NCBI GenBank assembly: GCA_039621445.1
Contig: CP154954.1
Span: forward strand, 39,455,816-39,519,815
Direction: 5' to 3'
DNA from: Euglena gracilis
Taxonomy: Eukaryota
Length of the DNA: 64,000 nucleotides
Positions 1,341-48,874 of this stretch are shown here, piece by piece. Both the position numbers and the translations under genes were made by a program. The notes under the pieces are model-generated. The model was not told where the DNA came from. It made no database searches and saw only the letters and a list, made by a program, of their open reading frames with translations. Every line of letters begins with the position of its first letter. Position 1 is the stretch's first letter.

Positions 1341-2700
1341 GGTGGCTGTGCCCGGGGCCCGACCCTCCCCGGGAACCATTTTGACTGCTGCCCCCCCCCC
1401 CCCTGAGTGAGTCCATGATGATACATGATGTTTGGCGGCGTCGAGGTGCGCCTTAGCGATGGGTTGCCCCCGGGGACGGGACTGCGCTGATTTGCAGGGG
1501 TTTTGCCGTTATCTGTGGGCAGTGCCTCTGATCTTTTCTCCCCCTAATCCTGGTGTTGGTGTGCTGTGGTATGTGCAAGTGCAGTCGGTGTTGACCGGAA
1601 ATTATGTTTGCTGACCTGGCTGCATCGCAACTCTTCGTCTCCACCTGTTGGATTTCTGTGGCGAAACAGGTTGCGAAGTGGGGACCAGAGCGACCCTCCC
1701 TAAACCCACCCAAATAATCAACCCGAGTCCGGGTTTGTGTGATCCATGCTTTCTGGTAGTGGACAATGCTGATTCGTGTGTACTATTTTGGGAGAATTGC
1801 ACTGAATTTGTTCAGCAGAGGTAATTTGTCGGTCTTTGTTGTGTAGGGGACTGGGCTTAAATCCCAAATCCTGAAAAATATGTTTGCAATGCGGCAATGC
1901 GGTGTACACAAAATAGGATCCTTCCCCAAATGACACTCATTTTCGCCCAAAATGTTTTTTATTGTTTTGCCGTACAGTCTGTAGGGATGACAATCATATG
2001 GGAGGGGTCGCTAAGCTCATGTCCGAGCAGAGCTTATCATGGGGCCCTTTTGACCCCCCCCCCTCTCGGGGCCACCTCGGGAGAACCAAGATTCCCGGTG
2101 TGAACCGACTCCCACCCCGGGAACTTTTCTTGGAGAAAAATATCCCCACGGTCCCTCGCATCCAGAGATACCCTTTTGTCATCCTAATTTTGTACCCACA
2201 CGAGATATTCCCATTTTGACAGGCCGAGGTCCAAAAAAGGGACTATAAAACAGGGTCTCTCTGCCAGCCAGAAACTACATATTTTGAAGTAACTCCCCAT
2301 GGCTGCTGAGTCGCAAAGAGGGCCCAACAGAAAAATTCAAACATGTGCAACGCCCTATCCAACCATACCTGGATTTCCTGGAAGCTGCATCTGAATCCAC
2401 AGCCCCGTTTTTTTTTTGCTGTGTTTTTCGACCGTTTTTGGTCCGGTTTTTTGGTGAAAATGGGCTAAAAAAAACACACAATTCTCAAAATATCTCGAAA
2501 ATTACGCAAAATGAAAGAAAACGTTTGAAACGTCAAATGAAGCACTTGGCCCGAGATACGGCACGTTTACGCTGCAAAACAGTGCTGCAGCCCTCCATCC
2601 CTGCCATTCTCGGCCGTTTTTGGGTCAATGAATCAATTTTTCCGCTGAGTAGTCGGGCCGGGCCGGGTGGGGCCGGGCCGGACTGCCAGGCCAGTCCAGG

Positions 2701-3108
2701 CAGGGATCGATGGGAAGCCCTTTGGTTTTGAAGCAGGTGGGGGGTCTGGACCCCCACCCCCCCTGGCAGGTTCCAAAAGTAGCAAATTTTCTTTTCCGGC
2801 ACACAGCGCCGGAAAGTGAGCAAAAAAGTGTTTTTCCTCACTTTTGAGGATATTGCAGAATTTTTGATGTTTTGGTGTTTCCCACATAAAAAGTGTTCTA
2901 AACTTTTGAAAAATGAGCATTTTTTTTAATTTATTTTCAAAGAAAAATCACCGATTTTTTTATACCAATTTTGGCCTGGTATCCGCCCTTTCCCAGTCCA
3001 CAAAATCGAAAATTTTCCTGGCCCCCTTCAGTCTCGAGGTTTGAGGGGGGTCTGACCCACCCCCCTCTATTGGGAGGGGGTCCCCCCAAGGCTTCCCATA
3101 CATCCCTG
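2701..3108. mobile_element. MITE family A (hAT-like TIRs); candidate non-conventional intron 2698-3113
   Basis: Ends CAGGGATCGATGGGAAGCC and GGCTTCCCATACATCCCTG; internally similar to 31303-31824. TSD degenerate. Confidence 0.8.
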
Positions 3109-3432
3109 TGGCCGTTCTGCAGGGCCGCACCGCCGGGCGTGTTGCTTTTGATAACAAAGAGCTCAGCCCGATTCAAAACCTGGTTAACGAAACGACACAA
3201 TTGGCAGAGCTTGCAATTTCTGCCTGTTGGAACGGTGACAAATCATTTTTTGTGGACATGGCCTTCCTCCTCGACACAGCGTTTTGCAGTTTGTTGACGT
3301 GTGGGTGGATTTTGGAGCCTCTTTTTTTTTTGCTCGAATGCTCATTTGCATGTGTGTGGCGTCCCAGGAACAGCTGCAAGCACAATGATGCCCCCCCCTT
3401 CCCCTCGTCCCTCCGCCCCCCCCCCCCCGCAG

Positions 3433-6400
3433 ATCGTGGCGGGGGGCTGCGTCATCTTCTGGGCGAAGCGGCGGTACCTCGGCAGCGCCGCCGGCGCAAA
3501 GTTCTGCCGCAAGGCGGTGACGGAGGGGCCGGAGGCGACCGTCCCGGTGGCCCAGGTGTGGGGCGGCGCTGGCCTGTGAGGCAGTGTTGGGTAGGTAGGT
3601 GTAGGGCAGGGCTGTACGGGAAATCCCGAAACCCGATGGGCGGTGGGTGGGTGGTGGGTCCGACCCCCCCCCCCCAGTTTTCCCGTGCACCTCTGAGGTT
3701 GAAACAAAGGTGGAAACTTGTTTGTGGCCTTCCCCGTGGCACAGCCTTCCCCCGAGGCCGGGGACTCCCACCTGTGGGGTGGCAGGGCCTGCCCCCCCCC
3801 CCCCTGCAGCATGTGCGGGACCGGCTGCGGGAGCTGACGGAGGCGGACCAGCAGCGGCGGAGGCAGCGGCGGGCAGAGGGGGGCGAGGGGAAGGACGCGG
3901 ACAGCGACACCGAGGCGCAGCTCGACGAGGAGGAGATCTTCGGGTCCGGTGTGGTGGTCGCTTGGGTTCCTGGGGGAGCCTTACCCCCCTCCCCGCCCCC
4001 TGATGTTGCTTTCGAGTCGGGAGAGCATCGCCCAGAAAATCAGAGGAATCGGGCAACCAGGTAAACCCAAACCCCCCAAATACCTGGCGAGGTGCCAGGT
4101 TATTGGAACCAACTTTTGGCCCTGCCCCCCCCCCCCTGTCAGGTCATTTGGGCTTTTTTTTTCAGCGTCGTAAAGGAACTTTGCCTGAAAAAGGGGGGGT
4201 GACAAGTTATTGGAACCATCCTTTTTGCCCCCCACCTCCCCGCCAGGTTTTTCGGCCACTGCCAGGAGCAAGGTCCCTGCCAGGTTATTTGGGGGGTGGT
4301 TTACCCTGAATAGATTCCATTTGATCACAGTTTTATAAATTTCTTCCCAGCAAAAGAAGGGAAATTGCAGGTTCTTATACCATCTGCTCAAGCATGCAGA
4401 ACGCGCACAATGCACGTTTTTACGATGTCTCCAGGTGCCTCTAGCCCTTGGTGAACGGTTTCTTGCAGCACGGGGGTAAAATAAATAAGTATTAAGTTGA
4501 TGTATGAAGCTGATATTTTCTTTACCATCACAGAAGGTGTTCCCGCTTGCGTGTTTTTACAAAATTTGCACGGCACTGTTGGGGATGATGACGTTGGAGG
4601 CAATAATTGCAACGACAAAACTACTCAATTGCTGCAGCCTACAAATGGAAATGGAACAAAGATGGAAACTTGAAACGCTTTGGAAATTAATGGGGGGGAA
4701 ATATATTTTTTTCCTTCACCATCTTGCATCTTAAGGATTGGGTTGAATGGATATTGCTGTTGTAATCCCAACAGAAAGGGAAGCGATGTTGAACTGATTC
4801 CCGGCGCAGATGTTCGGTGCTCCAACAGTCGAAGAAAGAAAAAAGCGGAGAGGCCAATTGGTGCCATTCCAAACAACAGATTTATTTCACCATTCTCAAC
4901 TGTCTCAGTGAAACAGCAATGCCATCTCTCTCTTTAGAGCAACGTCAGGTATGTGCTCATGTTTATTGTGATCTTCCCCTGCCCAGGTGTGTGGGGGGTG
5001 GATTTCATGAACCTCCGCTACCGGGATGAGCCCATCAAAAGCGTGGCACTGTACGAGGAGACAATCAAGCCCCGGCCCATCCTGCCGATCATTCACCCGT
5101 ATGTGTTTCACTTCCTGTGTGTTATTATTCAGCGCGTATCCACCAGCAAGCTTGTGAGGCTCCTCATTCCGTTTTCTCGTTTTGGCGATGTGACTCTTTT
5201 TTTCGGGTGCCCTGGTTCTGGCAGAAACCCGTGAAATTCCACGTTTTCGACGTGCCTGCTTACAAGAATCGTTGCTGCCGTCCTTGAGTGTATCGCGATG
5301 GCTGTCCCGATGGGTTACAAATTGGTTGGAGAGCCGCCGGGGGGGGGGGGGCAGCGCCGCTGACCTTTCGAATCGGGCGGCGCAGGTACATCCTGGTGGA
5401 GACGGAGACGTGGATGTACGTGCTGGAGAAGTGGCGGGACGGCGTGGCCATCTCCCGCTTCAAGCGGAAGGTCTGCCCGATGTGCCCCCCACCCCCACCG
5501 ATTTCCACGGGCACCCCCGTGTTCACGGCTCACTTGGGACCCTAACACCCGCTGAAGGACTTTGTTGGGAAAATGAGAAGTGTAGGAATGGGAGAGAGAT
5601 TTGCCATCTGTGAGCTGAGATGTGTGGCTTCTGTGAGACACGTGTGGCTTCCGCTCTCTGCCCAGGTTGAAGCAAAAGTGTGCCTGCCACCAGCCTTGGA
5701 ATGTAGTTAAAGGGCTTCTTTTTAACTTGGAAGGCTTCCCAGGGGGTGGATGTGTCTGGGACCTGACACTCCCTGGGGGGACCGGGGCCGGAGGCCCGAG
5801 TATGGTTTTGCAAAGCACCAAAATCTTTTTGGGGAAATGCCTTTAGACAGCCCGATTTTTCTGGGTGCTCTCCCTCCCCCCCCGCGGGCCCGTGCCAGGC
5901 CGGTTGCATAGGGGACCCCCCTCCGGGGTCTTAAAAAGAAGCCTGTTTGGTTATCCTCCGACCGATATCATTCTTTTCCCCGTTGGTTCAGATGCAGCGT
6001 GCTACACCTGCCATCTTCCACAATGCTTTTGTGGAAGATGCGCTGGATCATTGCGCCGTTGGCCCCGAGAAGGTGGCCCAAGGCTCGTACCAGGGGCAGA
6101 GCGCTCGTTTTTGGAGTGCCGACGCAGCCAATTTCGGCCGAAAATGGCTGAAATATGACGTTTTTTGGGGAGTCCGTTACCAACGTGCTATTTTGCGCCT
6201 CCCGGGCGGTAACTGCTGCGTTTTACGCACGCCCGCCGCAGGCCAAATTGCGTCTGTCTGCCCGGCGCCCTTCGCAACAATTAGGTAAAGGATCGCCGAC
6301 CTCTAGCCGGGGCAGATCGCTCGTTTTTTGGGCACGTACGCAGCCAATTTCAGCCGAAAATGGCCGAAAAAGGAAAGACGACACATCCTTTCTTGACAAA

Positions 6401-9267
6401 GTGAGAATTTATTTTCCTTGTTGTTGTGGTATTTGGCTGTTTGTTTGGGGGGCACGTTGCCTGTATGTTGTTGCCGAGGCGTTTTTCGCAATTCCCCAGG
6501 TTTGTTGATTTATTTTCAGTTTTTTTTTTAACACCTACTACTAGAACTTTCAACCCTCTTCTGCTAAGGAATTTGCTTTGTTAATGCGTTCATCGGATTG
6601 CGTAGCTTCTTCTTTCCCTTGATCAAATGGAAAGTTTTGAAACTTTACTCAAAGCTGAATAGATGCTCTGTTGCCGAACAGCTCGTCTTTTGTCAAAAAA
6701 TGGAACCTAATTCGGCCGAGAGGCAGGGGGGTTCGAAAAAAGGAAAAGGTGTGTGCGAGGTTTAGGTGGGAGGTGTCCCTCCCTCCAGACCGGGGGGGGG
6801 GGTGTCCGCCCCCCCCCCCCACCTGCCAAGGGGGTCCGGACCGACGCGGAGGGTACCTGACCCCCCAAAACAGTTCAAGTTTTTCCTTCCGGCGCTTTTC
6901 ACATTTCGGAAATTTCCGTTGGATCGATCAGCAAGATATCATGCCGCAGTGGGCCCTCCTGCTCCAGCTGAAATTGCGAAAATGAGCCATGGGTCAGCTA
7001 TGGATTCTGTTGAGCTCAGGGTCCATTGCAGCTGGCTGGACTCCCCAAGGGGTCAGCCAGCTGCCCCCCTCCCCCTCCCAAAATGGCACTTTCATTTTCG
7101 GCCTGAGACTTTGCATTGGGCCGAAAACCAGTTACCCACCCAGACCCAGACCGCCATTGTTTAGGTGGGGTGGGGGGACACCCTTCCTTCTCTTCATTCT
7201 GCTTCATTTGAGCAGAAGCCAGCCATGGTCTCAATAAGTTCTTTGTTTTCGCTGCGGTGGTTTCTGTGCATTCTTTTTGCCGGGCAGGATGATGCCGTTC
7301 GCAGCCGGGGCAAATGGTTTGGGCCCGGCCGGCTGTCGCAACGCAAAGCGCCGCACCTCGTCCAGTGTGCCACGCCGTGCTTGCCATGGATTCCGGAGCT
7401 GCGAGTGTGGACTGGCAGTTTGGTCCTTCACATGACCAATTTTGATCAAACCTTTCCTATCAATATTCATGGCATGCAGAGACTCTCTTAGCTCAGGGAG
7501 GTTGAATTTTTCCCTGCCTCACGGGGGGGGGGCAGGTGCTACCCGGAGGGGGGGGGTTCCTCTAATTTCGGTGCAAAGCGCCATTTTTTTTTGGGCCCCA
7601 AAGTTGACCCCCCAGGGTTATACAGGGATTCTCTAAACCCATGGGTGGCTCCCCTGCCACCAAGCCTTCTGTTATGGATTCAACCCCTCTTCGTCAAAGG
7701 CGAGCTCTTCCACTGCGCCCCGGAACACACCCGGACGTTTTGGAACAGCCGTTCACCCCGAGTACTGGCGCAGTGTTTCGGAGAGGATTGCGTGTTGGAT
7801 TTCCAGCACGGCACACCTTTTGCTTGGACGTGCACAGTGTGCCACCGTGTGCGGCACAACCAACCGGATGTGCATGTGTGCAGGGGCAACCCACGACGTT
7901 CCACCATTCTGGGGGCACCGATTTTTTAGCTCAATATTTTCCTTCGGTGTCGAAGGAATTTTCCTTCCAGGGTGCTGTGGTGCGTGGGGGGTGATCACCC
8001 CCGCACAGCCCCCCCCCCCCCCCCAGAGGGCCTAAGGGTGGGTGCAGGGATCCTTAAACTCTGATCCCGTACCTTCCTTCTTCAATCTCAAGACAATTGG
8101 ATCATTTCAACACTTTCAACATAGATCCAACGACCCCAACTCCGATTTGCCATGAGTGGATATGGTTGAATCAATGCGTCGGTGGGAGTGCTGGAGTGAC
8201 TGCCTTTCGGGGGGGGGGTGGAAGTTGCTGATTGGTTTCAAGGCGGTGACTGGCTGGTGATTTGTGAACAAGCGGCAGGGGGTGGGGACGGTGAGCTACA
8301 TGGTATGGCCCGTCTCTTTGGGCGCATTCTTTAAAAAAATTTAAGGGTGATAAGACTTCCCCTGCTTCTCCTTCTCCTTCAACCCTGGAAGACATGCACA
8401 AAGAATGTTCAGAATCCGGAGACCCGCAGATTTGACCCCCAACTGTGGTCCTCAACCAAGCCCCCAACCCCCCTCACGCCCCCCTTGCCGTATGCTGCAG
8501 GTCGACCACCGACGTGCGCCTCACCACTACAGAGCTGCTGTGCTGGGCGATGGAGCACCCAGAGTTCAAGCAATACACCGACCAGGGGTATAGTCTTGGA
8601 CCCCCCCCCCCGGGGGGGTAGGGTGGGTGGGTCCCTTGGACCCCGGGGGGGGGGGGGCTGGTGGGTATATCTTTTTCGGCGCCAAAGGCGCTGAAAATTT
8701 TGAAAAGGTGCTATTTTGGCCATTTTTTTGGCCATTTTCGGGCAAAGGTGGGTGGGTCCCCCTGGAACTCCCCCCTCCCCCCCGGGGGGCCCAGGGAGTG
8801 GGTGGGTGGGTGCTGACCCCCCCTGGTCTTAAAAAAATCCCTGGCACCGACAACTGCCACACCTTCGCCCACGTCCCCCGCCCGGCAGCCCCCGCTGGCC
8901 GCCTCATCCTCGGGAGGCGGCGATGCGTTCCCCTGTGGGTGGGCGGGCGGCTGCTGGGTTGGCCTGCCTTTGGACGTGCTCGGGAGCAACCTGCACCTGG
9001 CGGGGGGGGGGGGACGAGTTTCCCCCGGTGGTGGTCAATTGGCGTTCCGGCGTCCATGCCCCCCATTCTCTTTTTTTCTCACACGCTTTTCTGACCCCCC
9101 CCCCGGCGGAGGGCATCGAAGTCCGGGCACGCCCCGGGAGGCCCGGCGTGCCGAAGGCGCCCCCCCAACCCAATCGGCCGCCGGGCGGGGCCGGCAACTG
9201 CAGCCGCAAGGTGGGCATGGTGAACCCCAACAGCTTCTGGGAGGACGTCCTCTACGACGACTACTGA
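3433..9267 (+). CDS. Multi-exon gene for a permuted papain-fold (PPPDE/LRAT/NlpC-P60-like) cysteine hydrolase, preceded by a hydrophobic segment; N-terminus unresolved
   Basis: Phase-consistent exons 3433-3555, 3810-3948, 4987-5098, 5386-5470, 7288-7364, 8501-8579, 8849-8872, 9196-9267 (TGA). The first five introns are GT-AG; the last two are non-canonical. Joined: IVAGGCVIFWAKRR...PILPIIHPYILVETETWMYVLEKWRDGVAISRFKRKDDAVRSRG...ELLCWAMEHPEFKQYTDNCHTFAHNCSRKVG...DDY*. A His in a beta-strand followed later by F/Y-x5-NC-x2-FA fits permuted papain-like families. Family assigned by motif recognition, not by search. Confidence 0.75.
5710..5945. mobile_element. MITE with CAGGCTTCTTTT-type TIRs, inside an intron
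   Basis: AGGGCTTCTTTTTAA ... TTAAAAAGAAGCCTG; flanks TGTAGTTA and TTTGGTTA (6/8 match). Confidence 0.6.
8580..8848 (+). other. Non-conventional intron formed by MITE 8583-8843 plus one TSD copy
   Basis: CAGGGG...CCCTG flanked by ACACCGAC (8575-8582) and GCACCGAC (8844-8851). No AG acceptor near the 3' end. Removal gives in-frame KQYT|DNCHTF. Confidence 0.8.
8873..9195 (+). other. Intermediate intron: GT 5' end, non-AG 3' end, paired termini
   Basis: 8876-8890 CCCCGCCCGGCAGCC is complementary at 14/15 positions to 9176-9190 GGCCGCCGGGCGGGG, in +4/-6 geometry. Removal gives FAH|NCSRKVG. Confidence 0.7.
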
Positions 9268-9453
9268 CCCGCTGCCCCCCCTCTCCTCCCCCCCCCGGGT
9301 CTGTGGGGTCTGTGTGTGGGGGGCAACGCCCCTCAGTGGGAGGACGGTGGCTGGGGGGATGCGGTAAAGGAGACCGTTGAACGAACGAAGGGGCAACCCA
9401 ACCAGGCTTCTTCTTTTTTTTTTAACTTGGAACCCCCCCCCCCGGGTCGGAGG

Positions 9454-9805
9454 CAGGCAATTGCTTAAGCACTGACCAACCCCTCCCCCCCCCCCCCGGG
9501 GGGGGGGGAGTTTGGTTTTTTCAAAACGACTGACTGGTTTTTGGCCCGGACCCCTCCCCCCCGGGGGGGGGTCGGCCAGGAGTGGGCAAAAGTGGCTTGA
9601 GTGACCCCGGCGCCGAAGGCGCCGGAAAATTTTTTTGGGCCTAAAATGGCCTAAAGTGACTGGAACGTGGCCGTTTTTCTGAGTGGCCGACCCCCCCCCC
9701 CCCCGGGGGGGTAGTGACTGGCTGGTTTTTTGAAAATGAGTGACTGACTGGTTTTTAAAAAAGTGGAGTGACCCCCCCCCACCGGGGTCGGTAAGCAATT
9801 GTATG
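9454..9805. mobile_element. MITE with perfect 8-bp TSD, nested in a larger MITE (~9403-10407)
   Basis: GTCGGAGG|CAGGCAATTGCTTA...TAAGCAATTGTATG|GTCGGAGG. Confidence 0.9.
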
Positions 9806-11619
9806 GTCGGAGGCCCAAACATGGGTCTCAGTGCAATGCGCCGGAATTTTTTTTGGGAAATACCCTTAGACAGCCCGATAATGGTTAGGGGGTATCCCCG
9901 CCTGTCTTTTGCTTAAAGGTTCACTGTACCCCCCCCCCCCCCAGGGTGGACTACGGACTACAGCTAGTCCAAATTGGCCAGTGGAAATGCTCAGGGACCT
10001 GGGAGGACCGCTGGCAGGGCCAGTGCTGGAAAACCCTTTCTAATAACCGGCGTGAAGCGCCGAAAAAATTTTGAACCCCAAAAACCGGCCAAAAATGCCC
10101 ATTTTTGGCCAGCTTTGAGATTTTTCTGGAACAAATTGGCCAAAAAACAATGCATTTCACACCCGATTTCCACCGATGGTGGAGAGCTACGGATGAATTT
10201 TTTTCCATTCGGGACCCCTCCCCCTGGGGAGGGGGGTCTAGCTAGTGCCTCTTTTCCAGTGTCTAGTAAATGGCTAGCCAGCGCCCCCCCCCATCCTTAA
10301 GCAAAAGCCTGGCCCACGCCCCACCTCCCCGGGGGGGGGGGGAGGGGCCATTCTGCACCGGGCCGGGTGGGTGGGGGGACCCCCCGGGTGTCTTAAACAG
10401 AAGCCTGGACCCCACCACCAGACCCTCCTCCAGGCCCACCATCTGTTATGTTCTCTGACCCAAGGCATCGTAACCTTCATTCCTGTGACCTCAGGCTCTT
10501 CCTGACCTGCCACAGCAAACCTCCTTCAGCAATCACCAGGGTTGACTGGGACTCCCCAAAAGCCAACGGTGGAGGGTCAGGGTTTTGGTGCTTTCCCCGC
10601 AGACTGCAGGAAGGTCCAGATCACACCCCCATGACCACCAAGGGGGTCCAGGCCAACCCCGAAACGCCCCAAAACGTGCGTATTTCTTTCCAGTGTTTTG
10701 CGCAAACTTTTTTTTAAAAAGAGCACCTTCCACAAAATTTTGCCCAATTTTTTGCCTGTCAGAACCGATTGACCAGCGCAGAATCATAGAATTTCCTGAG
10801 ATTTCCACTTTTCCCCTGCCACTGGTGTCCTCCACTCCATCCTGATAGGCGGGGCAGGTTCCCACGCCTTCCATTCTTTTGGTGCCTCAGAAATTCTCTG
10901 GTCAAAAAAATATCAACGTTTTTCGTCGCAAAGTGCTATGGTTGGTGGTGGGTGCACCCGGCCACCACCAACCATTTTTGGTTCCCGCATTTTGGCATTT
11001 TGGTTCCCGCAACTCTGGCAATGGCGCATTAGACCACTCTGAACCCTTTTGACTGCATTAATCACCGGCTGCTGGGCTGCTCTCAAATTCTTGGGCTAAT
11101 GATGATAGAAGCTATGCGGAGGTTTTTTTTTCTTCAAATGTGAGTGATTCACAGAAGGTCTTTCAAATGGATTGGATTCCTCCCATTTTAAACCCAAGGT
11201 TCCTCACCCGGGCAAAAATTGATGGGAAGGAAATTCGTCATTTTTTGAATATGAATGCTTTTGTGCATTTTTTAATTTGGAGTTTTATGGGTTTCGGTGA
11301 GGGTGTTGATTGTGGTGAGTTATGGTCACTTCACAATGAATATTGCAAAGAATGAATAGCAGAAGAATGTCTGCAACTCCAAAGCATTCTGAAATCAGCG
11401 AAAACAACGCAAAGTAGGGGAATTCCCTCCTAGCGGGTGAGTCTAAGTAATCCGGCATGGACGACCGCCAAAAGGCAACGTTCATGACATTTTTTTTTTA
11501 GAAAAAGGAGATGCCTTTTGAGTGCACCTCCACGGCCCAACGTCATTTTTTTCCCCTGTAGTGCTGTGCACCGTGCTCATTTGGAGGGGAGACGATCAGC
11601 AGGATCAACACCATACCCG

Positions 11620-12045: not shown

Positions 12046-15000
12046 ATGCTTTTCTTTTTCCCTTCTTTCCCATTCCCTGTGTGTGGGCCAAGTTTGGGGG
12101 CCAATCGTAAATCTGTCATGGACGTTTCATCCTGCTCTTTCCAAAAACTTGGCCAAAACAATTGGTGGGGACAGACAGGTTCCCAAAAGTTAAAGCAGCA
12201 GGATACAGTGAAAACTTAAGCTACAGCTTTGTAATCAGTTGGTGTTGATCCAAAGAACCTTTGCCACACGCACACAAATGGAGTGCACATACCATCAGAG
12301 CAGTACCGTATCCCACATTTTATTTTGATTTGAAAATTCCAATGGACATTAAGGGGATCTTATTCTTGGGACGGGTCCACATTTGGATCTTTGCTGAAAG
12401 GATTGGCTGGAAGAGGTCTTCGTCCATGAGGTTCCAAAATCAAAGGGCAGGATTTTTGCAACAAACAAATGTTGCCTCCAAAGATGCCAAGTTTCAACAA
12501 ACGAGAAAAAATATAAGCCAAAAATCACCATTTCAAAAACTCATCCATTTTCGATTATTTTGCACAATCGTTTTGCACATGTTAGTTTTAGAAGGGTCTT
12601 CTTTTTAGATTTTTGCCAAAATTGGCAGGGGTTTTATTTGAGGGAGGGTCTTTAGGCAAACTTGTTGATTCAAGGCTTTTGCTGCGCTTTGGCTTGGACC
12701 GTCCCATTCAGGCTTCTGTTTCAACTCAGAACACCCCCTCGAGGGGGTGCAGGAAGGACCTATTGCTTAATTGGCCTGGAAAGCCCAAATGATTTTGACC
12801 TTTTTTTTGGGTTGGGGTCCCTAAAATTCCCGAGAATTTCCTAAATGGCCCAAAGTGGCCCAGATCACCTAAACCGAGAAAAATTTGGCCATCCTCCTTT
12901 GAAATTGTTTTTCAAGGGACGAAAATTTTGACTTTGTGGTCAGGACCAACAATCTTGGGTTCCAAGTGACTGCTTTCTCAATCCAGGCCATTGAGAGGGA
13001 GACATATGATGGGGTTTTCTGGTCATGATTCTGCGATTCTGGGATTCTAGGAACTTGGTTTCAACCTCTCTGGCAAGAAACCCAAACTTACTTTTTCTGG
13101 GTTATTGCAGTTGAATTGCATTCTCCCCTCATTTTGGCATTTTCACATTCGGAGCAAGTGTCCAACAAAGTTCTCCATTTCTTATTATTTAATTATCGAA
13201 GGCCTTTGCGCCATGTGACGCAGTTGGCACCATGGGGGAGGGACACAGACACTTTTTTTGTGTGTTTTTGTGGTGTTTGAATTGGCAAAATTTGTGGGTT
13301 TTTTTGCTTTTTTTTCTTGTTTTTTTTTGTGTTTTTGTTTTCCTCCGGCGATTTCTCATTCCCATTTTTTTAGAAATTTTTCGACTTCGAAAAAAATTCA
13401 ACATTTTGGCCCGATTTTTCCCTGTGACCAAACTTTTTGCCAATTTTTGTCATCTTTGGACTATTTTTGGCCAAAAATTGCACATTCCCGAAATCTAAGC
13501 GAAATACATCAGAATATAGTTGCACAATAAAAGATATTAACAGGTGAAATTTTTCAAGTCCACTCCTGAATAGCGTATATCCTGGGAGTTCCTGAAGGAA
13601 TTTATGCAACTGCCGCTCTTTTTGTGTTTGTTTGTTTGCTTTTTGTTTGCGTTTTTGTTTGCGGATTTTTTTGTGTCGCATTTTTTGAGGGTCCATTGTG
13701 CTTACCCCCTGTTGGCACCGAATACAACCCAGAATTGTGATATTTTGAACCCCCACCTACAGTTTAAAAATGACCAACCTAAAGTGGGCAAATTTTAGGC
13801 TTGATCACAGGCTCTTGGGTGCGGCACCAAACAACCTCTGGGGGGGTCCTGGACCAGCAGCCTGGGTATGGGTTTCGACCGGAGAATCTTTCGAAACTGC
13901 CCCGAGACAACCCCATTTCTGGGTGGTTTCCGGGGGGGATCCCGCGCCGGGCTGGGTGGGTGGGTGGGTGGGTGGGGTGGGAGGACCCCCTGGGTCTTCA
14001 AGCAGCCTTGCGCCATTGTTCAATTTGTGTCCAACCCCAACCCTGAGGGGTGCACCTGGTATTGCGGAGTGACTGGCTCCTCTTGGTTCCGGACAACACC
14101 AACACCTCTGGGACTTGTGGCACCGGAACTGGCCCAAAGAAATCCGTTTGCACCGGGGTTTTTTTAGTCTTGGACCCCCTCCCCCGGGGGGGAGGGGGGG
14201 GGTGGGTGGGTCCCTTGGACCCGGTGGGTGGGTGCCGACCCCCTCCCCCTCCCCCCCCCCCGGTCTTAACCATCAGAGAGTGACACCCCATTGGTATTCG
14301 GCCATATCGGCCCCCGGCCCGCCCGCCCCAGCGCTTCGCCCCTTGCTGCTTACCCCAGTGCCATGCCCTGGGCTGCCCGTCCCTGTGCCGGGTTCCCTGC
14401 ACCTTTTCCTGCCTGGCATTGCCCTCACTTCCCCCAAAGCTGTTCACCCAAAAGGGAACCATTTTCCACATTTTTGCCAAAAGGGAGTATGCGAGGCATA
14501 AAGGGACAGCACAAAGCACCTTCGTCTTCATCAAAATGGCCCGGCCAAGTCATCCCAGGGATCCAGAGCGAAAACCCTATTTTTCACCCCCCCCCCCCAC
14601 CCCATGGGCAGGGGGTCGAAAAAAACTGGGGGCAGGCGGTTTAACCGTTTAATGGCTTGAAGGAAAATTTTGCTTTGTGTTGTGCGTTTTATTATTTTGT
14701 TCACGCGGCACTGTGCAGATTGTGAACAATTATGCCTGTCGTGCATCCAAAAAACCAAACTGTTTCTGCACATTGAAAGACAACACAAAGGGTTTGAAGT
14801 CATTGATGGCGTTTTTCATGATGAAGATGGAGAAATATCCGAAGTTCCCCCCCCTGCTCTTCTTCAGTGCCATGGCTCCTCCCCGCACCCCCAACAGAGC
14901 ACCTCCATTTCAGCCTTTGGCCCCACTCCTGTATTCAGAGAATTGGTGCATTTCTCACAGTGCATCTCTTAAGCGGTAAATTGGAGGGGGACGCATGAGA

Positions 15001-15831: not shown

Positions 15832-35002
<19,171 letters not shown>

Positions 35003-35918
35003 GTGTGTTTCCCCTGCCCCTGAGTGATTTTGGCCGTCGCCGAGGCTTTATCGGCAGCTTGCACGTGGATGTCCTTGGCAACCATTTGCATTCCACCCCC
35101 CCCCTCCCAATGGACACATTGAAGGCTCTCTCCAGTGGACATCAAGGTGACGCTTTGATATCCATGTGTGGACACCGAAAAAAGAATATTTTTTGTGAGG
35201 GGACACCGGAAAAATTTTTATGTGTTGCCCGGAAAAAAATTTGCGCTTCATTTATGAACACCAAATTTTTTTTGTGGTTTTGTGGACACCAACAAGACCA
35301 CAACAAGTATTTTGCGGCTCCCAATTTTATGTGAACCACAACTGAGCCCTGATCGTCCCTGGGCAGCGGTCCACCCCTTGTTCACAACAAGAAGGGCAAG
35401 GTCTTGCATCAGAATCTTTTGTCTTTGTCACAGAGGCAAAACAGGAGCGGCTGAAAGCGCAACAGCAGAGGTGTGTCAGCGACGTTTCCTCAAATCTAAT
35501 GCTGGCCTTAAAGGTCATTTTTGCCTCATGTTGACAACCGTCAAAAAGTTCGTCCCCAATCAGAGGCTATACGGCTGTGATGCAGCCCTGACAATGCAAT
35601 GCATTGTGCAGTGGTTTGACCCAGCTTGCACGGCCGCATTGGCCCGGTGGTGCGGCTAATCAAGCTAACCACCCCATTTTTCACCGAGAAATATTTGTCT
35701 GCTTATTTCGGAAGTGATTGGTCTTTTCATGGGAAAGCTTCTGCTTGTTTCATTGTTCTCTGTTGGACGCTCATAAGGTGCTGTTCAGGTCCAGCAAGGG
35801 TCGAGAGGTCTTTTGTGTTCCTCAGGGTAGCCGGTTGACAGAAGCCGACCCTGACAATGACAACTAACTCCCGCCTGCTGACCGGCCCCAACCCCTGACC
35901 TCCTTCCCCACACTGCAG

Positions 35919-37584
35919 TGTTCTCCTGCTGCTCGCAGCCTCAGCTGTTTGAACTTTTGGCATCAGACCAAACAAAATGACGACGTTATCGTCCCTTCTT
36001 TTCTCACACTGCCTGCCAGGCACATGCAAATCGCCAGCCGCCTCAAACAGGGGTTGCCCCGAATCCCCCCGGGCAGTTCATGGGATAAAGGGGGGGGGTT
36101 CGACCACCCTGGGATCCCCCTGGAGCCAAAATGTTTTCTTCTCTGTTTGTGATGCTGAAAATCAAAACCCCCCAGCGCAAGGTAATGGGTGGGTTTCATT
36201 GGGATTGGGTGGGAGTAATGCAGGTCCTAAAGGTCGATCAATCATTGGCATTCTCCAGAACAGGCAGATCATCCAGGCACCAGCCAAAAGCCTGCCCAAC
36301 GGCCCTGGGTCGGGAGGGGGATCCACCTGTGTCCTCTCACTGCTGTTTCGTAATATGTTGATTTTTGAAGGGGAATGAATGACATGAAAGCTTCAAAAAA
36401 TGTAAAACTTAAGGGAGAAACAAAAAACGAGCAATCCTCGTTATTATCCAAAATTTGTGCAATGAAAGAATGTTGAATGAAAACTTTGAAGGTGCAGGAA
36501 ACTGCGCAGAAATGAGCAAAATGTGGTGGCGTAACGCTGGGTGGCCATATTCACCGGATTTGGGTGTATTCCTCCCACTTGGGGAGGGGGTGGACCCAAC
36601 ATCTCACCAATCACCTCGGAATTGAAGGGCGGACCGTGCATCAAGGAGAGGCCACCTCCCGACACGTTTGTGTTGGGTGGGGCAATGGGTGTTAGGTGCA
36701 GCTGATGAGGGTGGTTTAGCATTCACTGCTGATTGATCAATTTCTTGATTATTGCATATGAAAACAGAATCCAAATCAAGAATTTATGGTTGTTGGTCAT
36801 TGTAATAAATTATTTGGTTGAAAACTTCTAATGGAGTGGAGTGAAAACCCCAGGTATAACCTGAGCACAACCGTGTTAAATGAATTCATCTTTGGAAATT
36901 GATTTGGAGATATTGCGGGGTAATATTGGGTGAATTTCAAGACAACAAAAAAGTAATCCAAAAGAAATCATTGGAATTGCGGGCCCTTGGACCCCTCCCC
37001 CGGGGGTCGGTACGTCGTAGGTCAGTCAAGGCCTGCCCAACCTCCGGGCTGCAAAAAAATTCCAGGGTTTTCAGCCGATTCTGGCTTGGCTTTGGGTGGG
37101 TGGGAGGGTTGATTCCGGGGGGGGGGGGGGGGGTGGGTGGTGTGGGGGTTTTTCGGGGGGGCAGGAGGTCACATGATGGGTTTTGTTTGTTTTTTTCCGA
37201 AAAAATGGGCGGGTGGTTTGGACCCAGGAAAAAGTGCCCTGAGCACAGTATTCTACGTCGCCATTGTATGTCTATCACGATTCTATGTCACCACCAAACC
37301 CCCACCCCCAATTTTTAGTTCACAAATTTTCATCCAGGACCATCAGTAGGATTTTACACAAAGTCGGCCCCAAAAGGTGGGGTCCGGTGGTATGTGTATA
37401 TTTTCATCGCCCCCCCACCCGTCTCTTCTCAGCCGGGGAAAGCGATTTTAGATGGACGCCTCCCCCAGTGGTCAAAGTTCTTTACCTGCCGAAGGCCACC
37501 GGTGACTCCCTCCCCAACATGTGGTGACTGGCAGGTTGAATTTCAAGGCGTGGCCGACCCCATCCTCGGCGCATGCCTCGGAAG
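35919..37584 (+). CDS. Probable linker exons of the LRR gene
   Basis: 35919-35959 (LFSCCSQPQLFELL; preceded by CTGAC, a pyrimidine tract and CAG) and 37535-37576/37584 (VEFQGVADPILGAC). Phases are compatible with the flanking exons. Confidence 0.5.
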
Positions 37585-38949: not shown

Positions 38950-41900
38950 AGGGAACGACTGCAGGCGAGCACCGACCGGCTGGAGCGCCAGGCTGCGACC
39001 CTTGACCAGTGGCGCCCTTGGGTGGGCTGCCCGGGTTGGTCGGATGCGCAGGGGTCCGTGACTCCGCTCAACACTGCATCAACAGGACAAGCCAGTGCCT
39101 GAGCAGCTGCGGTGCTGGTAAGGGAAAAAGAAGGTTGATTGGCGGGAATTAGGAGACCTTGGTCTGATCTGTCCCTGGGGTGGGCATGCAGGTTAGGGTT
39201 CCCGCTGGAAACACTCTGCCACTACGCGATGAACTTTTTGAACTGCAGACTGCTGGCATGACCTCCATGGAGCACACCACCAACCCAACGGGAAATATGC
39301 AGGATAACTTGGTCACGGGGGAAATTTCCAGTCGCCGCAAGAGATCCAGAGTCTGCTCCTGAGTCTTTGGGAGGTATACAGCCAACGGGATCATTTGAGG
39401 AGGAAACATGCTGGGAAACCATTGCAATCATGTGTGTCTCCACCTCATGGTGCTGAGAAAGTCATTGGCCTTCAAAAGAATTCACCCAGGTTGTCGAGTG
39501 AAACCCAGTTGGGTGACTCTCAGGCAGAGCCAAACTCGGTGCATCTGAACAATATTCAACCCACGTTGTCAAGTATTTTGGGTATCTGTGCATTTTTCGC
39601 TGCAGATAAAAGCCATTTTGGGGTTTGTTATTCCCCCTTCAGGTCCAGACCATGTCACCGCTGAATAATGGTCCGACCAGGCTTGTGCTTAGTCGGGTGC
39701 CTACCCCAGGGGGGGGGGGGGTGGGTGCTAGGGGCAGGCACCCCATAGCACCCGATCCAACCCCCGGGGGGGGGGGGGGGGGTAGGGTTTTGGGGGGTGC
39801 CTGCCCCTAGCAGGCACCCCCCTCCGACCCCGGCGCCGGGGGCCCGGAAAAGGCTATTTTCAATGAAAAATTTCTGGGTCCCCCCCCCTGGACCCCTCCC
39901 CCCCCCCCCGGGGGTGTGCCTGCTGGGGCAGGCACCCTATGGCACCCCCCCCCCCCGGTCAGTAAGCACAAGCATGGGTCCGACCCACCGGGTGACCACC
40001 AGTGGCTTTGGGTTGTGGGTCCTCCGGCTCAAAGTGGCCAACCCTGGGTTCCGGCAAACAAGTGGCCTCATCCAGACCACCGTCAAGGCCAGCCGCATTT
40101 TTTTGGGGGATGGGGGTCGCATGGTAGCCAGGCCAACCCCGTCGGGCAGTTCACCCGTAAGCCGCTGCCCACAGGGATGCCCATCGGCTGGTGGCGGAGA
40201 TGGAGAGCCTCGGGTGTGGTCGGCCATTGGTGCACCCATCCCTTTCGCTTGCCTTCGGGGGGAAGTGAACCCCCCCCACCCCCATCACGCCTTCCCCCGT
40301 TGCCTTCCAAGGACCCCGGCAAGCTGCACCAATTGCTTGCCCACGGGACGTTTTTTGGAGGGGATGAAATAAAGCAGGGGGGGGAATTATGCGGTCCGCA
40401 TTATTCCGCATTATTCCGCATTTTTCCGCATTTCCGCATTATTCCGCATTATTCCGCATTTTTCCGCATTTTTCCGCATATTTTCCGCATTTTTTTTGTA
40501 AATTTTCCGCATTTTTCCGCATTTTTGCATTTGACCGCATTTTTTCCGCATTTTTCCGCATTTTCCCGCATTTTTCCGCATAATTTCCGCATTATCCCGC
40601 ATTTTCCGCATTTTTCCGTATAATTACCGCATTTTTTCGCATAATTTCCACATTTTTCCGCATAATTTCCGCATTTTTTTTGTGAATTTTTGCTTGTTAT
40701 TTGTATGACTACCAAGCTTCCAAACTACCAAGCATTTCCAAGCTTTTGCTCAATCACGTCGTTACAATGGTTTGTTTGACATAATCTTTTTGAGCAATCG
40801 CTTTTCATCAAGGTACTTTGGGACAGCACAATTTCATCTGTGCAGTTTTCACCCCGCTTGGAAGAGCAACTGACCCTTCTTTCATCGTTCAGGACCCTTT
40901 TTTTTCAAAAGGGTCCTAGTTCAGGTGCAAGCCCAGTTTCTGCGTGATATGTTCATCAGAGTTTTGAAATCGTTGCAGGACGGTTTGAATATTCGCTTTG
41001 AGAAAAGCAAGGAACAAATTGAGTTTTACCGTCAACTTCGCATGCTCAACCCAAATAATTTGCCTCTTATGTCATCAGCTCCCGCAGATTACTCAGCGTT
41101 GCATTTGGATGGATGTGATGAAGATTTCATACAATATTTGCAATGCACAAAAAGGGATATTGACGGCCCAGAGGAGTTAATTGAATGGTGGAAGACGCAT
41201 CGGCCATCTCTTTTCCGTGAACGTGTTTTGTTTCTGATTTCCTCCCCGGTCGCCACTGCGAGTGTGGAAAGGTTTTTTTCCGTTTGCGGACAGCTGGATG
41301 CCGATCAGTGGGCTTTGTCACAAAATGCATTCATGCTTCAATTTAATGGTGATTTGTCTGGGCGTTTCACCTCCCTCTGACCTGTTCGCATTGTTTATTT
41401 GCGTCCGCGTCTTTTGAACAATGGACATACTGCCGCTGAACATTTTTATTGTGCTTTGTTTTCCATTGCATTTTGGTGACTTCTGGCAAGCTTGGGCATC
41501 AGTGATGGAAATCAAATAGCATCGGGACCCTGCATATTGTGAGGCAGAAAGATATCTGTCCTCTCCATGTGACCTGGGACTCCACAGAATTTCGGCATAT
41601 TTTCCGCATTTTCCGCATTTTTCCGCATATTTTCCGCATTTTTTTCCCGCATAATTTCCGCATAATTTCCGCATTTTTCCGCATTTTTCCGCATAATTTC
41701 CGCATTTTTTCCCCGCCTGCCAGACCGCATAATCCCCCCCCCTGAATAAAGGCCTTGAAAAAAAAGACACTGGCAAACCTTCACATACATATATACATAC
41801 ATATATATATATATGTATGTATGTATGTATGAATGTATGTATATGTACACATATATATGTATATATGTATATATATATATATATATAACCTTCGTATATA

Positions 41901-43965
41901 TATATATATATATTTCGGAGGAGAAGGGGTGGCAAGCACATCTTTGGTGGTTTTTTGAGGGTTCTTTTCTCTCAATTTTTGTTTGTGTTTTTTCCTCAGC
42001 GACTTGAGTTACACTTCAGCATTTCTGTGTCGGGCTTTCACATTTTTTTAGTGGTGACACCTGGGGAATGGTGCGAATTTGGTGTCTTTGATCCACCGAA
42101 ACACGTCGCCGAGTTGTGAAACCCGATTGACCCCGCAAACTGATACATTCGCCAAAACACACTGAAACCCCGGTCATCACCTCCCCCCTTTCCTGTGTGA
42201 CAACTGCCAGTGCCGGGTGGTGGGAGGTGGGGCGACAGGTCCACCCCTTTGCCTGCTTTCTGAAGCCCTGGCGCACATTGTGGAGGTTTTTGAAGTTGTT
42301 ACAAAAGGAGTGGAAACTCACACGTCACGAATAAAGTCGGTAGTGTCGGGCTGTTAGAGAACTCCACTGGTGGTTGATGAGGGGATACAGAGCACAGGAG
42401 GATTGTTACCAGTGACCTGTTGACTCAATCTTTCAGGATAACATTTAAAAGTGCCGTTTATTTTAATGGTTGAGGTGCCAAGGAATGGGTTTTCGTTGAC
42501 TCAACTGTCAAATTCGGGCCCAAAAGGCTGGTGCTTTAGTTGTTGTGCTACAAGATATCTCGAACATATTTCAGGATCATATCAAAATATATTTAAGGAT
42601 CTTCAAACTGCATTAATGCCGCAACTTCAAATGGCACATTTGCGAAGCTACGCAAGTGGTTGGTTCGTGCAGACGCACACAGGTGTGCGCCCATTTAGCA
42701 AACCAACCACAATTTCACAAACACACCAATTTTAGCTCGCGTATGTGGAGTGTGGCCCGTTTGCCCGTTTGGATATTTGTGCAAACGCGTACCAAATATT
42801 AAATTCTCATGAAGTCAAAAATTTTGGGGCATTGTGTTGAGCTTTGTCTCACCTCCCCAAATCCCATGCAGCCAGCAACATCCCATGCAGCCGTTGAAAG
42901 GTTCCAAACAAACATGCAGGGTGTCATGCACCATCAAAAGTTTTTGTTTCCATCTCCGCGTCCTGGGGCACCAAACCATATTCTGATTACATTGATTGGT
43001 TTTGGGAGCCAGGGTGTTGTCATTTTCATTAAAAATGTCGGTGTGCGCATTTTCAAACGCAGGCAAAGGAAAAATCCTTTAGTTCAAGTTATGCCTCCAA
43101 ATAGCAATTTTTGCAATTTTTGCTCGGAAATTTTTTGACCCAGAAAATTTTCACAATTTGGCCCCTTTTTTTGTCATTTTTGGACCTTTTGCCCTAAAGT
43201 TGCCTATTTTTAGGACCAGCATGTTCCCAAAGTCTCTTAACAAAATAAAAAAATTTCCCCGGAGGAGATGAAAAAAATTCTGTCCTCTCCAGCAGAACAT
43301 CCTGGGGAAGCTCTAGATTGAATTTACGTGCAAAACGCTTTTTTTGTGTTTATTTGCGTTTATTTTTGCGTTTATTTTTGTGGGTTTTTTTGTTATGTTT
43401 TTCGAGGGTCCGTTCTTTGGAGCCCCTCCCTGTTATTCTAAGTGTCTTATTCATTCTTGCAGCTTCTGTTCTCCGTCTTCAAATCCCCCACCATCTCCAC
43501 TTTCCACAGGGAAGACACCTCCCAGCGATTGCGCACACAACGCGAGGGCATGGAGAAGACGCTGGGCACCCTGCGGGAGACGGACCAGGAGGTGTGCGCC
43601 ACCATTATGCATTCATTTGGTGGTCATTTGTTTCGAGTGGAACGAAGGCCCCCCAAGCGTGGACTGCAACAATGCTTCAAAAGATCAAACAACCTCAGAA
43701 ACACTCCCGGAATAGTTTTGACGTCCTCTGCCCGGTCATATGGAAGCCACCACCTGTCTAGGTAATAGCGCCATGATATGCGAGAATTTGACACATTTCG
43801 CCTTCTTGCAAACTTGTGAATGGAAAATATTAAAAAAAACACAAAAAAATACTACATTTACGAGATGAAATGGACAGTGCCCCCCCCAGGGGCTTCCATC
43901 TCGTGTCATCGCAGATGACCAGAGCGCAGAAGATCCTCGGAGCGTTGCGGCGATGGCCGTTTTGA
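38950..43965 (+). CDS. Vti1-paralogous Qb-SNARE motif without TM domain; probably the 3' end of the LRR gene
   Basis: Exons 38950/38952-39003, 40173-40213, 43510-43591, 43915-43965 give [75 protein letters not shown]. This is collinear with exons 4-6 of the downstream Vti1 gene, with the same 93-nt and 82-nt exon lengths. Confidence 0.8.
39004..40172 (+). other. Non-conventional intron splitting a SNARE exon
   Basis: GAC-CAGTGGC...GCCGCTG-CCCAC with an extended stem (GGGTGGGCTGCCCG pairing with CGGGCAGTTCACCC). Flanking pieces of 52+41 nt equal the uninterrupted 93-nt paralogous exon. Confidence 0.75.
39678..39976. mobile_element. MITE with perfect 8-bp TSD
   Basis: GGTCCGAC|CAGGCTTGTGCTTA...TAAGCACAAGCATG|GGTCCGAC. 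Confidence 0.92.
40375..41744 (+). mobile_element. Internally deleted hAT transposon retaining the C-terminal dimerisation domain
   Basis: TIRs CAGGGGGGGGAATTATGCGGTC and GACCGCATAATCCCCCCCCCTG; AATAAAG duplicated on both flanks; (TTTTCCGCA)n subterminal arrays. ORF 40925-41380 contains EWWK...[16 protein letters not shown]...LQFNGD. Confidence 0.85.
41783..41912. repeat. TA/TATG microsatellite
   Basis: Directly visible. Confidence 0.9.
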
Positions 43966-47000: not shown

Positions 47001-47436
47001 TCTCTGTGGCTGCAAGGTGTTCCCTCCCATGCTCATCCCAGGTTCACCAGGCCCTGCCCCCAGGAGCCATCAGCACCCATCGGTGAACACAAGGTGTCAC
47101 ACCCAGGTCCAGGCTTCCCTGCGTCGTCCGTGTTCCGCATGCTGTGTGGAGTGTGCCGAGTGTGAGCCCAGCCACGCACTGTACCACAGTCGTCGTGAAA
47201 CAGCTGTAAACAGCATGATACGTGGTTGAAGCAGAATACTGGGGGGTGGTCCCTGTGGTCCTCTTAAATCCAAACAGCTCATTTTTACGGTGTTTACCCC
47301 CAGTCTGGAAGAGGCACACAACCCTTCAGAATGCGCACCTGCGCACTCTGCGTCCAAAATGCGCGGATGCGCATTTTCACTAAAACTGTCAGAATTTTGT
47401 GACTCAACAAGAAAAGTGCATTCCCGGCCGTCTAAG
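44083..47436. mobile_element. TIR DNA transposon copy 2 with 5-bp TSD
   Basis: GGAGG|CTTAGACGGCCGGGAATGCACTTTTC...CCGTCTAAG|GGAGG. Lacks the MITE present in copy 1 and about 200 bp of internal sequence. Confidence 0.93.
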
Positions 47437-48874
47437 GGAGGGTTTTTCCTCTTTGTTGCCAGGCTCTGTTTTTTGAGGGGTCGATGCCTTTGGGAGGGAT
47501 ATCCAGCCAAGTGTCTCACTTCCCCCTCTTCATTGTGCTGCCCTTGACCCGGAATATTTTTCGACTCCATGTTTGTACAGAACCCGTGTTTGCAAGGTGC
47601 ACGGGTCCGCTGATGTATTTTGCTGATGTATCCGCTGATGATGATTTGGTGGCCCCCCTTTGGGCCGAGCACCAAACAGGATCCTATTTCCTGGGGGGGT
47701 TGTAAGTGGGGGGGGTTCAGAATTGCTGAAATGTCCAAAACAGCGGACGAAGGATCTTTTGCTTGTCGGCAAATAAAAAGGTGTGGGTTTTTGACGCCAG
47801 GCTGCTTCTTTTTAAATTTGGCGGACCCCGTTGCATATTGGGGGGGGTTGACCCCCCCCGGGCATCCGGCGGCATTCCCGTGTTTCCAGGGGCGGCAACT
47901 TTCTGGTTGAATTTTTCTTGCAACGCCAAAGAATTTTTTTTTCCTTGATGCGGTGGGGTCGGGCCAACCACCTCCCCTCAGCAGGCCTTCCCATACAGCC
48001 CTGGGTTGGTTTGGCGGGTCTGCAGCCAAAGCCCCCCCTCCCCTGGGTCAGGGTTGTCTTAAGCCGGAGGGACCCAACCCCAGGGGCGGGTCCAGCCAGG
48101 CAGCAGCTCCCAGCCGGGCTGCGGACTGTGTCGCCCGGTGTCGCAGTTTCCCCCACTCCCGTGCATGTCCAAGTTGGGCACCCGGGATGGTCAGTTGACA
48201 GTGTGGCCGGCCATTGACCAGCTAAACCCTACCGCAAAAGTGTCTCCCGTTCTGCCTGCCTGCCCACTGTTCCTGTGTCACTTTTTTTGTCACTGGCCGC
48301 AATTTCAATTTCCCCCTCTCTCTGCATTGCAGGAGAAGGGCAGTCCACCTGCTGTTTCTCTCAGAGTTCTGACAGCAGAAAAGCATGTCCATCCCCATCT
48401 GCCCCCGTAGTCATTTTTTTGGTTGCCTGCACGCCTATCCCCATGTTGTGGGCATTTTCGACCATCTGTTTCGTTCGACCAATTTTTTTTCAAAGCATCT
48501 CGAAGATGATGGGAGAATCTAAGGAAGCACCCAGAGACCCGAGGCAAAGCCCTTGGAACGCCAACGCCAACACCACTTTCCATCCAAAGACGAACTTTGA
48601 GACGTTCCTCTCCTCATTTCGAATGCCACTGTATTACCAAATCCTGTTGCTGCCAGGATACAGTATCACTACCTGGCCACAGGGGGACCGAAAAGCAACA
48701 GTCAAGGAGTGGTGGCTGGGCCTGCTCTGGGGTTTGAGGGTTCCATGGCCCGCTCCTGACAGGAGTGAGTATACCCTTTCGAACGGTGCTGCGGAGCTGG
48801 TCCGAACCGTGCATGTGACAGCCCCATTGTGAGACTGACCGATGCGCTTGAGCACATTCCGCGGGGCATGCTGG

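Follow-up and report, generated by a model that had tools for sequence, protein, structure and literature searches.

How the nonconventional introns of euglenids originate, and why the code by which they are spliced is asymmetric (3 nt on one side, 5 nt on the other), are open questions; an origin from MITEs (miniature inverted-repeat transposable elements) had been suggested only generally before. Both questions bear on a stretch of 64,000 nucleotides of Euglena gracilis (assembly GCA_039621445.1, contig CP154954.1, positions 39,455,816 to 39,519,815 of the forward strand; hereafter the window), in which two genes, that of EG_transcript_16500 (locus 1) and one for a Vti1-type SNARE (locus 2), each have a seventh intron built around an element that lies between nearly identical 8-mers. 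Our analysis indicates that the intervals 8580-8848 and 53922-54412 are probably, in each case, a MITE copy plus 8 nt of its own target-site duplication, spliced as a nonconventional intron. The window supplies concrete cases: an intron body that is a family member, an 8-mer in the register of the cuts, and sibling elements that moved with 8-bp duplications.

Splicing at the two loci

The letters of both loci, including a 7/8 direct repeat at each, are as an initial annotation of the window had described them. At locus 1 (8575-8851) a CAGGGG...CCCTG element is directly abutted by the 8-mers (...CAATACACCGAC|CAGGGGTATAG...AAAAAAATCCCTG|GCACCGACAACTGCC...), and ACACCGAC and GCACCGAC differ only at position 1. 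The same layout is found at locus 2 (53917-54415), where the element opens with CAGGC at 53925 and closes with GCCTG at 54407, its inverted termini CAGGCGTCTTCT and CAGGCTTCTTTT agree at 10/12 positions, and the flanks ACGGTGGC (53917-53924) and ACGGGGGC (54408-54415) differ only at position 5.

For locus 1, searching proteins with the gene's final exon recovered P0005 (eukprot EG_transcript_16500), a product of the Euglena gracilis transcriptome. Each of the nine peptide anchors taken from P0005 has a single exact match in the window, always on the + strand and within 1428-9264, and solving each junction against this protein gives a gene of nine exons and eight introns. Across the junctions in question P0005 reads ...EFKQYT|DNCHTFAH|NCSRKVG..., which means that 269 nt are gone from the mRNA between 8576-8582 and 8846-8852; the interval 8580-8848 is removed from the mRNA as an intron. 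The donor can be moved within 8576-8582 leaving the mRNA unchanged, and GT/GC-AG borders are present at none of the seven equivalent junctions; the initial annotation had seen no usable AG. Exactly one of the seven, 8579|8849, obeys the published N3-CAG...CTG-N5|R rule. This is the junction that had been predicted: it fits both P0005 and the published rule, which picks it out, and by the mRNA alone it is not separated from its six equivalents.

P0005 has no match to a Pfam family, and the description of the NC residues downstream of the element as a putative catalytic motif is unsupported. The exon pieces of locus 1 had no match in Pfam, in the PDB, in a word-index protein search (44 residues) or in metagenome contigs, and an exhaustive search of representative proteins with 38 residues returned only the repetitive protein P0004. 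A PPPDE/DeSI identity, considered on account of the stretch RLILGRR..VPLWV located 3' of NCHTF, was rejected, since according to P0005 that stretch belongs to intron 8. The high GC content at third codon positions (GC3) downstream of NCHTF is likewise misleading as a sign of coding, the true exon being only 24 nt long, and a GC3-based scan of the window did not discriminate exons.

For locus 2, an 84-residue exon query recovered the Vti1-type v-SNARE orthologs P0001 (PF05008, E-value 9e-17) and P0002, and tblastn placed a gene of eight exons at 48907-54508. In the model of this gene the N3/N5 rule fixed the borders of three non-GT-AG introns, and GT-AG sites those of the remaining four; the product aligns end to end with P0002, with 192 of 273 residues identical, the alignment taking in ...AAKKA|QLSV..., ...VYF|KWIAPLF... 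and the C-terminal RLRG. Reading through intron 7 leads into a stop codon, and this intron has no GT/GC-AG border. The ortholog alignment thus shows the interval 53922-54412 to be an intron, and both elements are real introns as had been proposed. A metagenome scan with P0001 found only a 33%-identical relative (L001), which was not used. Another set of Vti1-like exons, in diverged form, lies at 43344-43953 and is a paralog or a pseudogene fragment.

The splicing code of euglenid nonconventional introns is given as 5'-N3CDG-/-CH'GN5-6|R (Nomura et al. 2025, PMC12501133; Milanowski et al. 2014, PMC3935182). Mutagenesis in the former showed that 3 nt are required before CAG with no tolerance, while after CTG 5 nt are used and 6 tolerated; the same text states that most nonconventional introns are slidable and that they make up about 72% of all E. 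agilis introns (PMC12501133).

We compared the splice geometry of the 15 introns of the two genes. Nine are GT-AG introns, five carry a stem reaching from +4 to -6 exactly, and one (5100-5386) has neither feature. Contiguous pairing amounts to 5, 11, 4, 10 and 5 nt in the five stem introns and to 0-1 nt in the nine GT-AG introns, and the published code is well reproduced in both genes. At loci 1 and 2 CAG at +4 to +6 pairs with CTG at -8 to -6, the spacers are of 3 and 5 nt, and the next exon opens with G; the element plus exactly 8 nt is spliced out, in keeping with the claim made for them. Both loci are thus members of the euglenid nonconventional introns, with which they share the missing GT-AG borders, the CAG/CTG pairing, the purine-first exon and a junction made slidable by direct repeats; what is added here is the repeat-family body and the flank 8-mer in 5|3 register. 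A further trait of this class is release as a circular RNA once the conventional introns are gone.

Two other introns of the EG_transcript_16500 gene deserve mention. Intron 4 (5100-5386), with borders TAT|GTGTTT...GCGCAGG|TAC, has four equivalent junctions, none of which offers GT-AG ends or a CAG/CTG stem. Intron 3, a GT-AG intron, has an 8-nt flank repeat alike at 7/8 positions (CCGGTGTG at 3946-3953 and CAGGTGTG at 4984-4991), from which nine protein-equivalent junctions result.

Repeat families and the 8-mers that flank them

The body of intron 7 at locus 1 belongs to a repeat family, designated family A. Positions 8583-8843 align over their full length with 52357-52645 (77% column identity), and the likeness goes no further than CAG and CTG; compared between copies the flanks are unrelated, whereas within each copy they are alike, at 7/8 and 6/8 positions respectively. 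Moreover, the 53925 element shares two internal segments with the MITE at 31303 (one of 51 nt at 82%, the other of 121 nt at 74%) and also has sequence in common with 2699. Both intron elements thus belong to repeat families or bear inverted termini, and they resemble MITE insertions that have an 8-bp duplication.

An element of 1 kb (9403-10407), which starts 136 nt past the stop codon of the EG_transcript_16500 gene and has the MITE 9454-9805 nested inside it, bears the same terminus (CAGGCTTCTTCT) as the Vti1 intron 7 element, with flanks alike at 6/8; flank identities in this CAGGCKTCTT family are 7/8 and 6/8. Several MITEs, and Vti1 intron 6 as well, contain a module consisting of the GC hairpin CGGCGCC-GAAG-GCGCCG, after which AAAATTTT often comes; six matches (0.14 expected) fall in five places, at 8677-8693, 9608-9624, 20739-20755, 53315-53331 and 63096-63112.

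Mobility is shown for a sibling family. The MITE 31303-31824 interrupts a larger element of which the window has two copies, 92% identical; in its second copy this element is uninterrupted at 47251. Filled and empty sites are thus cleanly paired, with a duplication of exactly 8 bp, which means that this family has moved; an empty site was seen for the 31303 family only. The perfect 8-bp repeats reported earlier at 9454, 31303 and 39678 were all present.

How often such flanks would arise by chance was estimated from all CAG...CTG pairs 40-3000 nt apart in the window. Flanks alike at at least 7/8 positions were found in 57 of 66,641 pairs, with 37-67 in 14 shifted-register controls, and flanks of at least 6/8 in 444 of the same 66,641. 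When only pairs with termini of at least 10/12 were kept (n = 135), one had 8/8 flanks (31303-31824) and one 7/8 flanks (53925-54407); the controls averaged 0.15 and 0.40 respectively. A wider set, of pairs that end in CA..TG and have termini of at least 10/12, numbered 979 after filtering for low complexity; in it, exact abutting repeats numbered three at k = 8, where the mean of 30 shifted controls was 0.37 and one control reached five. At k = 7 there was one (1.20 expected) and at k = 9, 10 and 11 none; no excess was seen at k = 5, 7 or 9.

The repeat of locus 1 is therefore not above chance when taken alone, and the case for this locus rests on other evidence: the repeat becomes meaningful because the element is a family member, the junction is defined by a transcript, and the second copy has an 8-mer in the same register (6/8). 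That two family A copies should have flanks of 7/8 and 6/8 at predefined positions by chance is unlikely.

The superfamily of these elements was approached through a 1.37-kb remnant at 40375-41744, which starts with CAGGG and has TTCCGCAT arrays near both ends; its flanks share AATAAAG, either as a perfect 7-nt repeat or as 8 nt with one mismatch. The open reading frame (ORF) at 40874-41380, ending ...SVERFFS..., resembles the C-terminal dimerisation region of hAT transposases. By language-model features in a protein atlas, hAT-dimerisation clusters make up 22 of its 30 nearest neighbours (score 0.94). The remnant's subterminal repeat, ATGCGGAA, occurs in 26 copies inside the remnant and in five elsewhere, with 2.0 expected in the whole window; one of the five sits in the 53925 element, which we do not count as a link. 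CAGGG fits the hAT terminal consensus. Duplication length, CAGGG ends and a sub-threshold domain match together make these elements probably transposons of the hAT superfamily, an assignment that is indirect for families A-D; of the proposed hAT link, the hAT-like remnant with CAGGG ends stands and membership is only probable. Like hAT MITEs (e.g. Ds-like elements), those described here have 8-bp duplications, short termini starting with CAGGG and, in the remnant, subterminal short repeats; unlike them, they have no catalytic domain or autonomous partner in sight within the window.

A proposed route of excision and its rivals

The route that we favour would run as follows. The inverted ends would pair in the pre-mRNA, with CAG and CUG at the base of the stem, and the nonconventional machinery would cut 3 nt upstream of the stem on its 5' side and 5 nt downstream on its 3' side. 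Where 8-bp duplication copies lie directly next to the inverted ends, the 3/5 spacers would place both cuts between positions 5 and 6 of the duplication copies; the element would then leave together with exactly one copy, and the pre-insertion sequence and reading frame would return. The 8-mer repeats at both loci are in the register of the two cuts, and the transcript-derived protein at locus 1 is consistent with a restored pre-insertion sequence. The location of each single mismatch in the intronic part, read earlier as a mark of constraint on exonic bases, is vacuous in this respect, since each position of the duplication has one exonic and one intronic copy. Regarding the cutting enzyme, the hAT identity of these families and the share of this route among nonconventional introns, what we say is inferred.

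If the route holds, a CAG-ended hAT MITE that lands in an exon would be removed without a scar, as 3 + 5 equals the 8-bp hAT duplication, and the excised circular intron RNA would hold one rebuilt duplication copy between the inverted ends; in the circle of locus 1 the joint would consist of the first 5 nt of the right copy followed by the last 3 nt of the left copy. A broader claim, that precise excision at the RNA level is matched to one transposon superfamily and that the nonconventional introns, hundreds of thousands in number, for the most part descend from such insertions, is tentative and in our view somewhat doubtful. If general, the route would account for the spacer sum of 8, for the slidability of most such introns, for the tolerance of massive transposon insertion in coding sequence and for the pyrimidine|purine consensus that is reported to be shared by both junctions (PMC11282704), a consensus to be expected because both junctions would lie in copies of one 8-mer.

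Several observations weigh against this reading. Only two of the five verified stem introns keep the 8-mer repeat (7/8 and 7/8, vs 4/8, 2/8 and 2/8 in the others), both genes were reached through the picks of the initial annotation, so that 2/5 is not a frequency, and the generality asserted there is not borne out; overall its interpretation is partly supported. Self-comparison of the window found no family copies of the three repeat-less stem introns, which are either old insertions whose duplications decayed or introns of another origin. A CAG...CTG pair with 7/8 flanks is expected some 50 times per window by chance and is not significant alone. The inverted terminus of locus 1 consists of only CAGGG plus a T/A run (8/12), and the folding energies of both introns do not differ from those of shuffled sequences (z -1.56 and -0.20); in the predicted centroid fold the CAGGG/CCCUG ends are paired at locus 1 and unpaired at locus 2. 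The published 3' spacer is of 5-6 nt and not strictly 5 (PMC12501133). A MITE family starting with GGCAG also has 8-bp duplications, and 8 bp is therefore not exclusive to CAG-ended elements. Moreover, the match of the remnant ORF to Pfam PF05699 (E-value 0.008, 16.4 bits) is below the cut-off of 21.4, matches to the Hermes transposase in the PDB on the same ORF region are not significant (E ~0.8-1), and no DDE domain, catalytic core or autonomous element was seen in the window.

The most serious rival, which we nevertheless rate as unlikely, holds that the agreement of numbers is a coincidence produced by a filter: cutting at 3 and 5 nt would come from an older RNA-processing enzyme unconnected with transposons, MITEs would be one source of introns among others, and only 8-bp MITEs with C-A/G-G ends would be tolerated in exons. 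This would explain why three of the five stem introns lack both flank repeat and family copy, why stems vary (CAG, CGG and CCC) and why MITEs of the same families are also found in conventional introns and between genes, and the code as published accepts CGG-CCG as well as the longer spacer (PMC12501133). Against it, the two spacers add up to the length of the duplication made by just those elements that turned out to be introns, and the sole described recent gain has 8-nt repeats (PMC4770533). Vti1 intron 6, which has no flank repeat, keeps a hairpin plus AAAATTTT module resembling that of the MITEs, and a decay of old duplications fits this better.

That the elements are DNA transposons of another superfamily with duplications of about 8 bp (e.g. 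P, Merlin or Mutator-like) is a less probable reading still. It draws on the missing catalytic domain, the sub-threshold dimerisation match and the coexisting GGCAG-ended family already mentioned, and on the inverted termini of families A-D, which are unlike those of the remnant beyond CAGG(G). However, the sole transposase-like ORF found to be enclosed by CAGGG termini is, according to both Pfam and the atlas, similar to the C-terminal domain of hAT, the non-significant PDB match covers the same region of this ORF, CAGGG is in line with the hAT terminal consensus, and the duplications measure exactly 8 bp rather than 9-11.

The flank repeats could also have been left behind by double-strand-break repair or by microhomology-mediated intron gain, the account put forward for the gapC intron. 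This explanation was offered by Milanowski et al. 2016 for the eight-nucleotide direct repeats of the sole strain-specific, recently gained nonconventional intron described (PMC4770533). It is very improbable for the loci studied here, where the inserts are members of repeat families with similarity ending at the inverted termini, a sibling family offers both a filled and an empty site that differ cleanly by the element and an exact 8-bp duplication, and three unrelated insertions are all exactly 8 bp. Mobility at the RNA level, in which excised intron circles would be reverse-spliced or reverse-transcribed into new sites with no DNA cut-and-paste, is hardly credible even with the full-length intron circles reported in PMC11282704 (citing Guminska 2018, 2021), given that copies exist both inside and outside genes and that the flank 8-mers differ between copies and repeat within each, as target duplications do and carried intron ends do not.

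A MITE origin of nonconventional introns was proposed in 2014 (PMC3935182), repeated with target-site-duplication-like repeats in 2024 (PMC11282704) and put forward again in 2025 (PMC12501133). As in our reading, inverted ends and such repeats are taken there as MITE signs; in contrast to it, the portions of these three papers available name no superfamily, give no duplication length and draw no link to the 3 + 5 spacers. Within the literature searched, which has supplements and subscription journals outside its scope and several papers only in part, we found no statement of a hAT type, of an 8-bp duplication or of 3 + 5 being equal to the duplication.

The principle itself, by which splicing takes out an element and restores the mRNA, has precedents among spliceosomal introns. 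The introner elements of Micromonas and Aureococcus were reportedly described by Huff et al. in 2016. These, and the introners of Amoebophrya (PMC7789003), are non-autonomous DNA transposons with inverted termini and target duplications that become introns, and splicing removes the element with one duplication copy. However, introners of Micromonas and Aureococcus use spliceosomal GT/GC-AG sites derived partly from the duplication (PMC11282704, Fig. 2), a type of border found at none of the equivalent junctions of locus 1, and those of Amoebophrya have repeats of 3-5 nt (PMC7789003). In the Euglena elements it is the distance from an RNA stem (3 and 5 nt) that determines the sites; the duplication measures 8 bp, and the machinery is non-canonical.

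Feature coordinates and further elements of the window

Table 1. Features of the two genes and of related elements, in window coordinates.
Feature	Positions	Strand	Basis or remarks
Exon 7 of 9, EG_transcript_16500 gene, ...STTDVRLTTTELLCWAMEHPEFKQYT	8501-8579	+	Peptide anchors, junction solving
Left flank-repeat copy ACACCGAC	8575-8582	+	First 5 nt exon, last 3 nt intron by the N3 rule
Nonconventional intron 7, EG_transcript_16500 gene, 269 nt, N3-CAG...CTG-N5|G	8580-8848	+	Transcript-derived protein and junction solving
MITE-like element, family A, CAGGGG...CCCTG, 261 bp	8583-8843	+	Body of intron 7, EG_transcript_16500 gene
Right flank-repeat copy GCACCGAC	8844-8851	+	First 5 nt intron, last 3 nt exon
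Micro-exon, 24 nt, DNCHTFAH	8849-8872	+	Nonconventional introns on both sides
Intron 8, EG_transcript_16500 gene, non-GT-AG, N3-stem-N5|A, stem CCCCGCCCGGC	8873-9195	+	11 contiguous nt paired; flank 8-mers 4/8
MITE, ends CAGGCAATTGCTTA.../...TATG, perfect 8-bp duplication GTCGGAGG	9454-9805	+	Termini/flank scan
Family A, third copy, short and degenerate, ends approximate	14153-14270	+	Window self-comparison
MITE, 522 bp, perfect 12-nt inverted terminus CAGGGATGGATG, perfect 8-bp duplication CCCTGTGG	31303-31824	+	Termini/flank scan
MITE, ends CAGGCTTGTGCTTA.../...CATG, perfect 8-bp duplication GGTCCGAC	39678-39976	+	Termini/flank scan
hAT-like non-autonomous remnant, 1.37 kb	40375-41744	+	Inverted terminus of ~22 nt starting CAGGGGGGGG; ORF 40874-41380
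Empty site, single CCCTGTGG in paralogous copy of host element	47251-47258	+	Filled/empty comparison
Vti1 intron 1, nonconventional, N3-CAG...CTG-N5|A	49103-49435	+	Termini 10/12; flank 8-mers 2/8
Family A, second copy, flanks GCTGGGCT/GCTGCCCT	52357-52645	+	In conventional intron 5 of the Vti1 gene; flanks 6/8
Vti1 intron 6, nonconventional, CGG...CCG type	53141-53831	+	10-nt perfect stem; flank 8-mers 2/8
Vti1 intron 7, nonconventional	53922-54412	+	Element 53925-54407 plus 3 + 5 nt of flanks

The larger element that hosts the MITE 31303-31824 is present at 27947-32010 and 44083-47439; it is 3.4-4.1 kb long, has inverted termini of about 27 nt (CTTAGACGGCCGGGAATGCACTTTTC) and a 5-bp flank repeat for each copy (TGTCC and GGAGG), and its longest ORFs match no Pfam family. 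A candidate element of 2.4 kb at 33705-36111, with termini CAGGGTGGACGTAA/CAGGGTGGTCGAAC alike at 10/12 positions and flanks GGACCCCC/GGATCCCC alike at 7/8, holds one ORF with an ...ARVERSF... motif; no Pfam family was matched by its ORFs. Finally, a second MITE family with GGCAGCYCCCAACT-like termini is represented at 58127-58401, 58596-58875 and 57398-57924, and its 8-bp flanks are GTAAAAAT (perfect), GGTTAGGA (perfect) and ATTTGGGG/ATTTGGAG (7/8).

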